The notes below the pieces were generated by a model, which had not been told where the DNA came from, searched no databases, and saw nothing but the letters and a program-made list of their open reading frames with translations. From the sequence record NC_028248.1: a DNA stretch of 64,000 nucleotides; one strand, given 5' to 3'. The DNA comes from Escherichia phage slur16. Position numbers and translations under genes: made by a program. Of the stretch, positions 17,728 through 43,491 are shown in pieces (within the stretch, counting starts at the first letter, position 1; each line of letters starts with the position of its first letter).

Positions 17728-18306
17728 TTAGAAGTATTCATAGAGGTATCCATCGGGAGCTGGAATTTTTTCATGAATGTAGTAATCAACACATATCCCT
17801 GTTTCTCTTCGGCAAGAATTGTGGGATACCCATTCTTTAAGAACGTTGCCATTCATGTCCAGCCTCCTTACATTTTTACACCGTCTACCACTGGTGCTTC
17901 TATGTAACAGAATATCCTCTGTCTGCTTGTCTTTATTTTCTCCCCAAGTCGTTAAACGGATATTATCAAAAGAGTATCCTTTGAAATCATCTATCCTGTC
18001 ACAAGAAGGCTTTTTCCTTTTGTCGTATCCGCTGGCTACCCACTGGTCATACAACTCTTTGTAACCGTTCAGGTATAGCCACTCCTTAAACTCTTTTTTG
18101 GTGTAAGTCGGAGGAGGGTGACCTCTTTGCTTGCTGTTGCACTTTTGAGCCTTGTACAGCACGCGTATTACACCTTTTTCTGAAGAGTTGTGGGAAAACT
18201 GGTCAGCCTCCCTACTGGCCTTCTTGCAACACTCTTTGCACGTTGATTTGTTACTGGTGTAGAAGTCGGAGGCCTCCTTGTCCTCTCCACAACGTTTGCA
18301 TTTCAT
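17728..18306 (-). CDS. HNH / endonuclease VII-like (His-Me finger) protein with N-terminal Cys cluster
   Basis: CDRIDDFKGYSFDNIRLTTWGENKDKQ resembles the HNH core; CKRCG…CKECC zinc-finger-like N-terminus; free-standing next to the SSB-like gene. Confidence 0.4.
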   Translation of the reverse strand: MKCKRCGEDKEASDFYTSNKSTCKECCKKASREADQFSHNSSEKGVIRVLYKAQKCNSKQRGHPPPTYTKKEFKEWLYLNGYKELYDQWVASGYDKRKKPSCDRIDDFKGYSFDNIRLTTWGENKDKQTEDILLHRSTSGRRCKNVRRLDMNGNVLKEWVSHNSCRRETGICVDYYIHEKIPAPDGYLYEYF

Positions 18307-39437: not shown

Positions 39438-39708
39438 TTGTCATTTTACATTCTTGAAATTTTAACACAAGACGGTGATTGTGTCTAGTGTCTAAAAAGA
39501 TTTTTTCAACCATCAGGCACACGGTATAACCGTCCATCTTGTTAACAACAAAATCTCCAGGGTGAGGGAGGATGTCCCCTGGATTGGGGAAACATAACCC
39601 GCTCAAGAAGGCATCATCGGTGGTGGACTTAATGGATTTCCACACATTGTCTGCCTGAACATTTTCACCCACATAGTATACACTACCACATGCCTTCATC
39701 ATAGTCAA
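39430..39708 (-). CDS. hypothetical protein (92 aa)
   Basis: Track ORF. Confidence 0.4.
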   Translation of the reverse strand: MTMMKACGSVYYVGENVQADNVWKSIKSTTDDAFLSGLCFPNPGDILPHPGDFVVNKMDGYTVCLMVEKIFLDTRHNHRLVLKFQECKMTIA

Positions 39709-40604
39709 ATCTCCGCGTAAATTAAACTGGAATCAGTATACTTCTTTAACGGGTAAATATCCTGTCCATAGATGCCGTCATTAAACACCTCATCTACCCA
39801 AAGGCTACACTTATATCCCATCATTTCTAAAACGCCCATCTCTTCTTCGGTGAACTTATCACCGCTCTTGCAAGATGTCAATACCTCATTCTGTACTCTT
39901 GCTACCTCGAAGCGGTTATTGGCAATATCACTATTGGCAATCAAATACTCACCTAAAGGGTGTGCAGCATTAAAGATGCACAGTGGACGGTTGACGTAAT
40001 AGTCTCCCGGTGTATAAAAATTGTTGAGATCCTTCACCAGAACATTCTTATCAGTCACTTCATTTATAACATCATGCATATCACACATCTTTATATGTTT
40101 GAGGATTCCATCCCCCATCACAAAATAAAAACTTGCTGAGACACTCTCGGCATAGATCTTACTAGATCCGTTGTAGTTGTATTTTACGCGAATGCTTACA
40201 GGGGTTTTGCCTGTCGCGTTAGCCATCATCCAAAGGAACGGAAGTTCAAACCTCTCCTCTGAGGAAACAAAAGGTGAAGTTGCCAGAGATCGGAAACCTC
40301 CAGAAAAGTTGAAAGTTACAGAGCCGCTCCGGCGGTATGATACCGCGTATTCTACTTTTATATCGACGTACCCATTGGAATAGGTGTGTCCTTCATTATC
40401 TAAATATGTCCACTTATCAGACCCAGATACCAATCTACGCTCAATAACCTTCATCACTACAGGAATTAGTGGGTTGGTACAAACCGCTTTTGAAGTAGCT
40501 TTATCATCTAAAGCCTCGTAAATTGCAGAAAGGATGTCCCCAGCTGAAAGATTGGTTGTTATGTCCTGTTTCCACCGCGTACTAAAACTGTTAAGATTTG
40601 CCAT
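39705..40604 (-). CDS. hypothetical protein (299 aa), first gene of the leftward unit
   Basis: Track ORF; start faces the divergent intergenic region 40605-40680. Confidence 0.5.
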   Translation of the reverse strand: MANLNSFSTRWKQDITTNLSAGDILSAIYEALDDKATSKAVCTNPLIPVVMKVIERRLVSGSDKWTYLDNEGHTYSNGYVDIKVEYAVSYRRSGSVTFNFSGGFRSLATSPFVSSEERFELPFLWMMANATGKTPVSIRVKYNYNGSSKIYAESVSASFYFVMGDGILKHIKMCDMHDVINEVTDKNVLVKDLNNFYTPGDYYVNRPLCIFNAAHPLGEYLIANSDIANNRFEVARVQNEVLTSCKSGDKFTEEEMGVLEMMGYKCSLWVDEVFNDGIYGQDIYPLKKYTDSSLIYAEI

Positions 40605-40683
40605 AAGTAAGTGCTCCTATGTTAGTTTTCTTTCGAATGGGTGCACTATATTGTGGAGTTAGAGTAAAGTCAACACGTTTTTG

Positions 40684-41724
40684 ATGTTGACATCTGTTGA
40701 GACAATTGATACGATTTCTTCACTTACAGAGCACGAGAGACGACTCATGAATCTTGAAAAATATTATACACCAGAAGAGTTAGAGCGCTTGCTCAAAAAA
40801 TATAGACGCAAACAGAATAACGCACGGAAACGAGATATAGAGTTCGACCTGTCATGGGAAGAATACCTCCTATTTGGTAAAAAACTTTTAGGGGAGGGGG
40901 TATGCGACTACACCCTTATACCTTTCGACATGCACACAGATGAAAACGGACTGGGAAATCCTTTCTACCCATCTCTGGAGCGGATAGATGATGAAGGTCC
41001 TTACGCAATTGATAATTGTTGTGTGGTAGGGTTGAGGTGCAATGCTCTGAAAGACTGTCTGGTAGATAAAAAGACTGCAATCCTGATTAAAGACAAAACT
41101 GATCGAAAAATTGTCCAGCAGATGATGCTCCACCTGAGCGAAGAGCGTATGGAGAAATTGAAAGGTGATTATACTTTTGAAGATTTCATCTTGCAATACG
41201 GGACAGAAGAAGATAAACTAGCACTATTTGACGAAGAGGAGGAAGATATGTCACCAATGCAGGACTTTAAAAATTTCATGGCTGATCGTGCAGCCAACAA
41301 ACACATTTCAGACATCGTAAACGAGACTGTGGCAGAAGAAATTGAAGAACAGAACTCTGAAGAGGAAAAAGATCCTCAGGAGGTCGAAGAGGAGATTGCA
41401 GAAGAAGTTCCTGCACTGCCTGATGATGTTGAGATTGCTAAGGCTTACACTTTCTATTGTCAAACGTTCTACGATGCAGGTATGAAAGTTGATCTGTCGT
41501 TCAGCCAATTTAAGAGTTCGTATATTCGCAAATGCTGTGCTTTAACTGGTGAACGTCTCGGAGCTGGACTTAAACCACTGTTGGTGACCGACTGGAATAA
41601 AGGTTTCACTAAAGGAAACTTTATGGTAGTATCTCCAATTATGGAGAAAGCTATGACAGATCTTATGAAGACCACCCGCATGACAATGACCGAGTTGGCA
41701 GGTATTTTCAAACACGTTAAATAA
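40684..41724 (+). CDS. protein with two degenerate HNH / endonuclease VII-like repeats and an acidic linker
   Basis: Repeat 1 DLSWEEY…CDYT…SLERIDDEGPYAIDNCCVVGLRCNALK; repeat 2 DLSFSQF…CALTGERL…LLVTDWNKGFTKGNFMVVSPIMEKAM; track TTG start 40681, no clear RBS. Confidence 0.4.
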   Translation: MLTSVETIDTISSLTEHERRLMNLEKYYTPEELERLLKKYRRKQNNARKRDIEFDLSWEEYLLFGKKLLGEGVCDYTLIPFDMHTDENGLGNPFYPSLERIDDEGPYAIDNCCVVGLRCNALKDCLVDKKTAILIKDKTDRKIVQQMMLHLSEERMEKLKGDYTFEDFILQYGTEEDKLALFDEEEEDMSPMQDFKNFMADRAANKHISDIVNETVAEEIEEQNSEEEKDPQEVEEEIAEEVPALPDDVEIAKAYTFYCQTFYDAGMKVDLSFSQFKSSYIRKCCALTGERLGAGLKPLLVTDWNKGFTKGNFMVVSPIMEKAMTDLMKTTRMTMTELAGIFKHVK

Positions 41725-41736
41725 TGACAGGGGCCA

Positions 41737-43218
41737 ATGGCCCCTTCTGGAGTTTTAATGGATAGCAGAAGTTCAGAAATCATTGCCTCACAGAAAGATG
41801 ATGCCCTGAGAATGTTGCAGGCTGCACGTATGTATCTCCTTGAAAAGCTGCCGTTTTATGGCACACTGCTGTCAGGGTTGCAGTTCGTAGAAAACCACAC
41901 ATGGTGCTCCACCATGGCAACCGACCATAAACGCATTTATTACAGCCCTGAGTTCATTATGGGATTGGCTGATGAACGCAAGGCTATTCTTAAGGCTTCT
42001 CTAACTGACGAGCAGTTTGAGATGGCTGAAGTTTTCTATTCCCCAAAATCTGTGAAAGAGGTGGCCTTCCTTCTGTCACATGAGGTGGGGCATATTATCT
42101 GTGATCACCTGGTCCGTGGTAAAAGCTTTGAGCCGGAACTGTTCAATATTGCTTGTGATCACGTTATCAACACAGGTCTTGTGGTTGACTTTAGCAAGCC
42201 TCCTTGTGTTTTCTTCCCGAAGGGGAAAAGCACTACGTTCGTGAAAGGCAAGCCTTTTGGCTTCTTAGCTAACTGCTACTGCGACATGAAGTTTCATGGA
42301 TGGATTGCTGAGAACGTCTATGCAGTTCTTGATAAGCAAAGAGATCAGAATAACGGTAAAAGTAAGAGCGGTAAAGGTGAGAACTCTCAAGGAGATAAGC
42401 GACAAACCGATGATCACATGAGTGGGAACGGTGGCACCAGTGATGATCTTGGAAAGGCTATGGGGTATGATCAGCCACAACCTGTAATCAGCCAATCTGA
42501 TAAAGATCAGGCCATGCAGGACTCTGGCGATATGCTGGAGGCAGCAATGCAAGCGTCCGGAGGTCGTTGCCCTGAGGCGGTTCGTGAGTTTGTCAAGAAT
42601 AGAGGTAAGCCTGTAATCAATTATATAGACATCATCAAGCAGCGTATGTTGTCTAAAAGAAAGGCCGAACTGACCTACAGAAAACCTGGTCGCCGATCTG
42701 GGTCTTTGACCAGCACAATGCGAAAAGTCGGAGCTATAAACAAGAACCAGCACGTTATTGTTCCTGGTCGTAATCCGGAAAACACTATAGATATTGTGGT
42801 GGCTTTAGACGTTTCTGGCTCGATCTCTCAAAGAACTTTAAAGAAAATGTTCAATGAAATCACCGGATTGTGCAATCTGTATAAAGAATTTAAGGTTACA
42901 ATGTTCTGTTGGTCAACTGAGGTTGGAGAGGTTAAAGTATACACTCGCGGCAACATAGACGAAATGATCAACTATGAGGTCCACTCAACATGGGGAACAA
43001 CAGCTGCTTGCGTGTTCGAGTATCTGGATGCCAACATACCAAATGCAAAAGATGTCATCGTCCTGACCGACCTATACTTTGAGCATAACTTTGAACAAAA
43101 GGCTGTTGACAACAAGTGGAAAAAGTACGATACTTTATGGGTTCTAACCGAAGGGTATAATAAAAATTATATCCCTAGCTTTGGTAAAACTGTGGAATTA
43201 ATCGAGTACGCTAAGTAA
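41737..43218 (+). CDS. VWA-domain protein with N-terminal HExxH metallopeptidase-like domain
   Basis: HExxH at SHEVGHIICDH; MIDAS-like VVALDVSGSIS; 493 aa. Confidence 0.65.
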   Translation: MAPSGVLMDSRSSEIIASQKDDALRMLQAARMYLLEKLPFYGTLLSGLQFVENHTWCSTMATDHKRIYYSPEFIMGLADERKAILKASLTDEQFEMAEVFYSPKSVKEVAFLLSHEVGHIICDHLVRGKSFEPELFNIACDHVINTGLVVDFSKPPCVFFPKGKSTTFVKGKPFGFLANCYCDMKFHGWIAENVYAVLDKQRDQNNGKSKSGKGENSQGDKRQTDDHMSGNGGTSDDLGKAMGYDQPQPVISQSDKDQAMQDSGDMLEAAMQASGGRCPEAVREFVKNRGKPVINYIDIIKQRMLSKRKAELTYRKPGRRSGSLTSTMRKVGAINKNQHVIVPGRNPENTIDIVVALDVSGSISQRTLKKMFNEITGLCNLYKEFKVTMFCWSTEVGEVKVYTRGNIDEMINYEVHSTWGTTAACVFEYLDANIPNAKDVIVLTDLYFEHNFEQKAVDNKWKKYDTLWVLTEGYNKNYIPSFGKTVELIEYAK

Positions 43219-43224
43219 GAGAGG

Positions 43225-43491
43225 ATGTTATTTATGGCAACAGAGGTAGTAATTAAAGCTGAACGCCCAGTTAAAAAAGCTATCAACACGTTCCCTGTGG
43301 GAACCATTGTGAGCATGATCACAGAGTCAGGTCGTGTATCTACGCTGCTGATTGTGAAATCTGCATGTTCTTCTTGTGTGTGGGCTTACGATCTGGACGA
43401 GAAAGAACTAAAAGATTTTGTTGGGGAGCTGAAAGCAACCGAGCTCGATGCTCGTATCGAAGTATTTGGTGAAACTATGGAGGAAGAGTAA
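43225..43491 (+). CDS. hypothetical protein (88 aa)
   Basis: Track ORF; GAGAGGA before ATG. Confidence 0.45.
   Translation: MLFMATEVVIKAERPVKKAINTFPVGTIVSMITESGRVSTLLIVKSACSSCVWAYDLDEKELKDFVGELKATELDARIEVFGETMEEE

Follow-up and report, generated by a model that had tools for sequence, protein, structure and literature searches.

The Srd-like gene of Escherichia phage slur16 and its predicted tandem of PacI-type His-Me finger domains

The open reading frame at positions 40684–41724 (+ strand) of Escherichia phage slur16 (NC_028248.1) has three contradictory public names. Records containing exactly the same protein call it a putative anti-sigma factor, an HNH endonuclease, or a type II restriction endonuclease. 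The preliminary description of the analysed stretch of DNA (64,000 nucleotides, referred to below as the window) offered yet another reading, that of two degenerate HNH or endonuclease VII-like repeats joined by an acidic linker, possibly an inactivated nuclease fold reused as a DNA-binding or regulatory protein. The question is what kind of protein the gene encodes, and whether the nuclease fold, if there is one, still has an active site.

The gene and its surroundings

The region 40000–43300 of the window is 100% identical to that of Escherichia phage slur12 and 97–99% identical to those of about 115 other rV5-like phages (genus Vequintavirus). The gene is present at the same place in 115 of 117 rV5-like records. 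In rV5 itself it is ORF11 (gp11), annotated as "anti-sigma factor; Srd-like"; the rV5 DNA in this region is 97% identical, and biologically it is the same gene, hence we refer to the slur16 gene as Srd-like. The passage of the rV5 genome paper dealing with gp11 (PMC3606486) describes it as a probable Srd homologue by PSI-BLAST. The protein matches PHROG 3118 (phrog_3118) over its full length (E 1e-110), and both PHROG and RefSeq label the gene 'HNH endonuclease'. At the same time, no Pfam or NCBIfam family matches the Srd-like protein, its 92 homologues, Srd of phage T4 or the single-domain relatives; in particular, the curated HNH models (Pfam HNH, HNH_3, Endonuclease_7 and similar) match neither the Srd-like protein nor the 92 homologues nor T4 Srd. 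An exhaustive profile search yielded about 1,800 cluster representatives matching the Srd-like protein at E ≤ 0.001; the best 150 of them are mostly 230–310 aa long and match in two stretches. The Srd-like gene is a member of an already known family, to which the present analysis adds the duplication of the domain, its assignment to the PacI type and the start codon. We found no description of the tandem architecture or of the active-site assignment of this family in the literature searched.

Sixteen records named 'Campylobacter phage' (within MG065644–MG065690, host Campylobacter jejuni) are 97–98% identical over this region to the E. coli rV5-like phages considered here. Probably, either the host label of these records is wrong or the lysates were contaminated.

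The longest open reading frame spans 40681/40684..41724 on the + strand. The alternative starts in database records are 40684, yielding 346 aa, and TTG 40789, yielding 311 aa; the rV5 record places the start of gp11 at the equivalent of the latter. We prefer the start at ATG 40747, with the coding region 40747..41724 (+) comprising 325 codons and a stop, since a sigma-70-type promoter falls inside the longer version of the frame. This promoter (40687..40715, +), predicted by consensus match only, has an extended −10 box (TTGACA, 17 nt, TG-n-TACGAT), agrees with the consensus at ten of twelve positions, with TG present, and coincides with the promoter P11 annotated in the rV5 record. Further, ATG 40747 is preceded at 7 nt by a Shine-Dalgarno-like GAGAG (40735..40739, +, as read from the sequence), divergent homologues start at the equivalent position, and several NCBI accessions from E. 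coli assemblies contain exactly the 325-aa product. Thus ATG 40747 is probably the true start, and all residue numbers below are counted from it.

The same promoter is predicted to drive the rightward unit, and the Srd-like gene is indeed its first gene, upstream of a DUF2201 metallopeptidase/VWA gene, as the preliminary description had placed it. A second promoter faces the opposite direction, so that two divergent promoters stand back to back at 40645..40715. A 23-bp palindrome, GTCAACACGTTTTTGATGTTGAC (40669–40691), includes both their −35 boxes and may represent either an operator common to the two promoters or just the two TTGAC boxes themselves. The leftward neighbour (39705..40604, −) is annotated as 'putative alpha 1-3 fucosyltransferase'. 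As its product matches nothing in Pfam and only one PHROG, phrog_12338, of unknown function, this name looks unsupported.

The downstream gene (41737..43218, +) contains a DUF2201_N metallopeptidase domain and a DUF2201 VWA-like domain by Pfam. PHROG 1314 and several RefSeq records call its product 'HNH endonuclease', which seems to be an annotation error passed on from record to record. The stop codon of the Srd-like gene is separated from this gene by a perfect 7-bp GC-rich hairpin, AGGGGCC AAT GGCCCCT (41729..41745), whose loop contains the first ATG (41737) of the long downstream frame. In the rV5 and nom records the gene begins at ATG 41758, with a GGAG Shine-Dalgarno sequence, and the start at 41737 is probably too early. 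In rV5, a MoxR ATPase gene is located on the opposite arm. The VWA/MoxR arrangement holds within the Vequintavirinae and is found in Erwinia phage Hena1 as well, but, in the few contexts read by hand, it is not kept in the Pseudoalteromonas or Aeromonas phages; since the arrangement is absent there, functional coupling of the Srd-like gene with VWA/MoxR was set aside.

In one metagenomic contig (L011, 1740..3325), a distant two-domain homologue (P0067) is immediately followed by a gene similar to polynucleotide kinase-phosphatase (AAA_33 and HAD_PNKP domains); this is a single case. Polynucleotide kinase of T4 is the other T4 factor said to enhance the action of host endoribonucleases on mRNA.

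Two domains and a putative active site

The preliminary description noted the same pattern in both halves of the protein. A pairwise BLASTP comparison of the halves is not significant (E 2.1), although DLSWEEY is paired with DLSFSQF in the expected register. At the level of profiles the two halves are homologous: hhalign of the N-domain and C-domain profiles (106 domains each) yields an alignment of 104 columns with probability 97.3% and E 1.9e-11. T4 Srd bridges the two halves, as its residues 4–133 match the N half (BLASTP E 4e-7) and its residues 30–80 match the C half at 249–295 (E 1e-3). Similarly, both halves match the same stretch of single-domain relatives (P0124, P0119, P0161 and P0152). 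Judging from these comparisons, the repeat is genuine, but detectable only via family profiles.

The depth of the alignment mattered for the structure as well. AlphaFold (AF2) with seven close sequences yielded pLDDT of 52.6, whereas with an alignment of 92 diverse homologues the mean pLDDT is 89.5, exceeding 90 in both domains and 95 in the C domain, while the linker is poorly defined; the relative placement of the two domains has low confidence (pTM 0.57). In the model, both halves have the beta-beta-alpha structure: the N domain comprises a long helix 9–28, strands 75–79 and 91–95, and helix 96–107, and the C domain, helix 226–243, strands 278–280 and 292–294, and helix 297–310. The elements of a His-Me finger, two antiparallel strands, an omega loop and a helix with a metal ligand, were all found, so that both halves are predicted to be His-Me finger (beta-beta-alpha-metal) folds, as had been suspected. 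A Foldseek search with the model returned PacI at the top, followed mostly by HNH domains, none of them below E 0.001; among predicted viral structures (BFVD), the matches were phage "anti-sigma factors" and HNH proteins of giant viruses.

PacI was also the only meaningful match of the 92-sequence profile to sequences from PDB, profile positions 14–98 being aligned with PacI residues 30–123 (E 0.0018), while a PDB search with a shallow profile gave nothing relevant. The N-domain profile compared with the matched PacI segment by hhalign yielded E 6.3e-8. The C-domain profile shows no significant similarity to PacI in a direct hhalign comparison, and its link to PacI is via the N domain only. 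PacI is an exception among active HNH enzymes: it has no catalytic histidine, using an omega-loop tyrosine instead, and its single metal ion is held by an Asp and an Asn (PMC5714182, PMC4081073).

The N domain (residues 1–110; 40747..41076, +) consists of a basic helical part (with K22 and R29) and a PacI-type beta-beta-alpha-metal core without zinc sites; the translated core is PSLERIDDEGPYAIDNCCVVGLRCNALKDCLVD (40969..41067, +). It is followed by a helical extension (residues 111–152; 41077..41202, +), conserved up to Tyr142. The canonical catalytic histidine at the end of the first strand is replaced in both halves, as the motifs LERID and LVTDW had indicated, and the preliminary description was correct at this level: the N domain has the invariant Arg79 in its place, and the C domain has Val or Ile. 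However, the N domain retains the entire set of residues of the PacI active site. The putative active-site residues, with their PacI counterparts numbered from the HMMER alignment, are Glu78 (40978–80, +; Asp92 of PacI), which is Glu or Asp in all 106 homologues used to assess conservation, Arg79 (40981–83, +; Arg93), Tyr86 (41002–04, +; Tyr100) and Asn90 (41014–16, +; Asn104), each conserved in 100% of these homologues, Asn99 (41041–43, +; Asn113), in 98%, and Lys102 (41050–52, +; Lys116), in 99%. The homologues are roughly 20–40% identical.

The C domain (residues 228–325; 41428..41721, +) is a degenerate second copy. It is basic (pI 9.4) and retains only the scaffold residues Cys264, Thr267, Asp282 and Asn291. 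Where the N domain has the metal ligand, Arg, Tyr, Asn and Lys, the C domains of the 106 homologues have hydrophobic or varying residues, namely Leu/Phe/Tyr/Trp, Val/Ile, Phe/Val/Ile/Leu, Gln/Glu/Gly/Ala and Leu/Met. As the C domain folds confidently without the residues of the active-site set, their invariance in the N domain should reflect function rather than folding. Hence the earlier suggestion of an inactivated nuclease fold applies to the C half only, because the N domain keeps the whole PacI set; the latter shows every sign of a maintained PacI-type active site, from which we infer nuclease activity.

The two domains are joined by a linker (residues 153–227; 41203..41427, +) with helices 154–165 and 170–183, which is disordered from about residue 184 and has low pLDDT. 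It is very acidic, as described initially: Asp and Glu constitute 39% of its residues, and the net charge is −24. In 137 homologues, the linker has a median length of 37 aa and a median net charge of −3. The linker length and charge differ between lineages, and a strongly acidic linker characterises the rV5 lineage; the linker as a family-wide conserved functional element was dropped given these medians.

Of the known proteins, T4 Srd (NP_049634) is homologous to the N domain in its approximately 130 N-terminal residues (identity 24%, HMM E 2.8e-21, in addition to the BLASTP match given above) and keeps the conserved residues of this domain, with the signature CERYNNR. The remaining 113 residues of T4 Srd (136–248) do not yield a significant match to the C domain (hhalign E 0.26, hmmsearch not significant). 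An alignment of these regions made by eye (A..Y..C...NLSF...K) has no statistical support and was dropped.

Possible functions

We assign a probability of roughly one half to the reading in which the Srd-like gene encodes an early protein of host takeover that acts on nucleic acid and combines a single nuclease-type site with a degenerate partner domain; that it is catalytic, on which substrate it acts and how it is linked to RNase E is what we infer. In such a scenario, the gene would be the first to be transcribed rightward from the host-type promoter, and the product would be a single-chain tandem of two PacI-type His-Me finger domains with a flexible acidic linker between them. Glu78 and Asn99 would hold one divalent metal ion; Tyr86 in the omega loop would take the part of the absent histidine as the general base or the nucleophile; Arg79 and Lys102 would contact the phosphate, and Asn90 would brace the omega loop. 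The basic C domain, having no site, would most likely offer a further surface to which nucleic acid or a partner could bind, and the whole protein may resemble a PacI dimer with a single working half, that is, a putative pseudo-dimer. Early in infection it would bind and probably cut or nick nucleic acid as a part of the host shut-off, and it might feed into decay by RNase E, as T4 Srd does. The favoured class of substrate is RNA, because T4 Srd, the only studied relative, accelerates RNase E-dependent decay of host mRNA.

The invariant polar residues of the N domain could just as well bind phosphate or a protein and have no catalytic role. A possible, albeit less probable, reading is that the protein is a non-catalytic adaptor of the T4 Srd type, which would stimulate RNase E and bind either RNA or the catalytic N-terminal half of this enzyme; the Arg/Tyr/Asn/Lys pocket would then bind, for instance, a 5′ phosphate or a protein loop. 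The homology of the N domain to T4 Srd is consistent with such a role, and non-catalytic reuse of His-Me fingers has precedents in Smad MH1 and Enpp. The effect of T4 Srd is reportedly abolished in RNase E-defective cells, which argues against an autonomous RNase. Papers citing Qi et al. (2015) present T4 Srd as a partner of RNase E that binds its catalytic N-terminal half and hastens the decay of host mRNA. However, the known inactive His-Me fingers, Smad MH1 and Enpp, have lost both the histidine and the tyrosine, whereas the N domain here keeps the whole PacI set invariant. Moreover, the rest of T4 Srd, beyond the N domain, has no counterpart in the Srd-like protein. RNase E binding and mRNA destabilisation are known for T4 Srd only, and, as the N domain is all that the two proteins have in common, this function may not transfer to the Srd-like protein.

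A more far-reaching proposal, which we consider doubtful, is that the Srd family including T4 Srd consists of working tyrosine-type His-Me finger nucleases, each a pseudo-dimeric chain with only one active site, and that their cuts in host transcripts, producing 5′-phosphate ends, feed RNase E. If so, the 'stimulation' of RNase E would be a relay of two nucleases rather than allosteric activation, and the 'anti-sigma' label in hundreds of phage genomes would be wrong. The placement of both the Srd-like protein and T4 Srd in the PacI branch points to one testable tyrosine, Tyr86 here and Tyr72 of T4 Srd by our own count, and this tyrosine bears on the way in which T4 Srd turns RNase E against host mRNA. 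If the site is inert, the result would be no more than an improved annotation for an early gene common in phages.

It is unlikely that the protein consists of two inactive nuclease folds now serving as a sequence-specific DNA-binding protein or a transcription regulator of the early-to-late switch. Such a regulator would agree with the lack of the canonical histidine in both halves, with the clearly degenerate and basic C domain, with the location of the gene at the head of an early unit and with the precedent of Smad MH1, but not with the constellation of an active PacI-type site in the N domain and its near-total conservation. Further, Pfam and NCBIfam reveal no helix-turn-helix or other regulator domain in the protein, and the DNA-binding or regulatory role suggested by the preliminary description received no specific support here.

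Many phage HNH genes are selfish homing endonuclease genes, and the PHROG and RefSeq label would place the Srd-like gene among them. One such candidate is present in the window, the free-standing gene at 17728..18306 (−), which encodes a paralogue of 192 aa with an N-terminal zinc ribbon (CxxC...CxxC) and a PacI-type core (DRID..GY..N..N..K). The similarity of its core to that of the Srd-like protein, proposed earlier, was borne out: the core PSCDRIDDFKGYSFDN...NKDK is recognised by the N-domain HMM (E 7e-9), and PSCDRIDDFKGYSFDN itself by BLASTP (E 0.004), and it is the only other copy of the core within the window. Only 48 of 115 close relatives carry this gene, while about 67 of the 115 show a clean gap of approximately 590 bp between conserved flanks; judging from this pattern, it behaves like a mobile homing-endonuclease gene. 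Database records name it 'endonuclease VII' or 'putative homing endonuclease'. The Srd-like gene, on the contrary, is not sporadic: besides its nearly universal presence at the same place in the rV5-like genomes, it is syntenic in Erwinia phage Hena1, and a distant metagenomic homologue is again the first gene at a divergent junction. Therefore it seems to be a core early gene rather than a sporadic insertion, and its being a homing gene is highly improbable.

Equally hard to sustain is an anti-sigma factor or a sigma-70/sigma-S decoy competing for the RNA polymerase core: this label traces to T4 Srd, whose annotation 'similarity with rpoD' was copied to rV5 gp11 and many other records, but we rejected the sigma-70 similarity of the family, as its profile shows no detectable similarity to E. 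coli RpoD (hhalign probability 0.65%, E 0.088; BLASTP E 1.7), Pfam families of sigma-70 regions match neither the Srd-like protein nor its 92 homologues nor T4 Srd, and the experiments on T4 Srd, as reported by the citing papers, point to RNase E and not to RNA polymerase.

Comparison with known systems

T4 Srd has one recognisable copy of the domain, whereas the Srd-like protein has two. The T4 srd gene is tabulated as early; here, early expression is suggested by the host-type promoter only.

Among the inactive His-Me fingers, Smad MH1 and Enpp resemble the C domain, which likewise keeps the fold without the histidine, tyrosine and metal ligands. The resemblance is an analogy only, neither sequence nor structure indicating a specific relationship, and the N domain is outside that class. 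As for endonuclease VII (T4 gp49 type), mentioned in the preliminary description, no specific similarity was observed beyond the common beta-beta-alpha core.

PacI (PDB 3ldy/3m7k) belongs to group 20 of the His-Me fingers of Jablonska et al. (2017), which is mostly viral. Similarity of the Srd-like protein to PacI was observed at both the sequence and structure levels, although the sequence E-value of 0.0018 is modest and the Foldseek matches do not go below 0.001; the omega-loop tyrosine together with the acidic and Asn metal ligands is present in the N domain only. The two proteins have in common the beta-beta-alpha-metal fold and the D/E-R...Y...N...N..K set, with Arg replacing the catalytic His and Tyr in the omega loop. 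The metal ligand is Asp in PacI and Glu in most Srd-like proteins. The two Cys4 zinc motifs of PacI are absent in the Srd-like family, where Cys53 alone is conserved: it aligns with PacI Cys63, while PacI Cys66 is opposite to Thr56, and positions 95 and 98 are variable. Finally, PacI is a restriction enzyme, whereas the Srd-like gene is a phage early gene, and PacI is a homodimer, whereas the Srd-like protein carries an intact and a degenerate copy within the same chain, separated by the acidic linker.

Four tandem proteins of the family (P0114, P0141, P0139 and P0150) have the full C-D-R-Y-N-N-K signature in both PacI-type copies, and from their sequences they look like single-chain versions of a dimer with two sites. 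Since tandems with both sites intact exist, the Srd-like architecture looks like a fused dimer whose second site has decayed, and its one intact and one degenerate copy would provide an example of a dimeric nuclease that has become a single-chain protein with one site.
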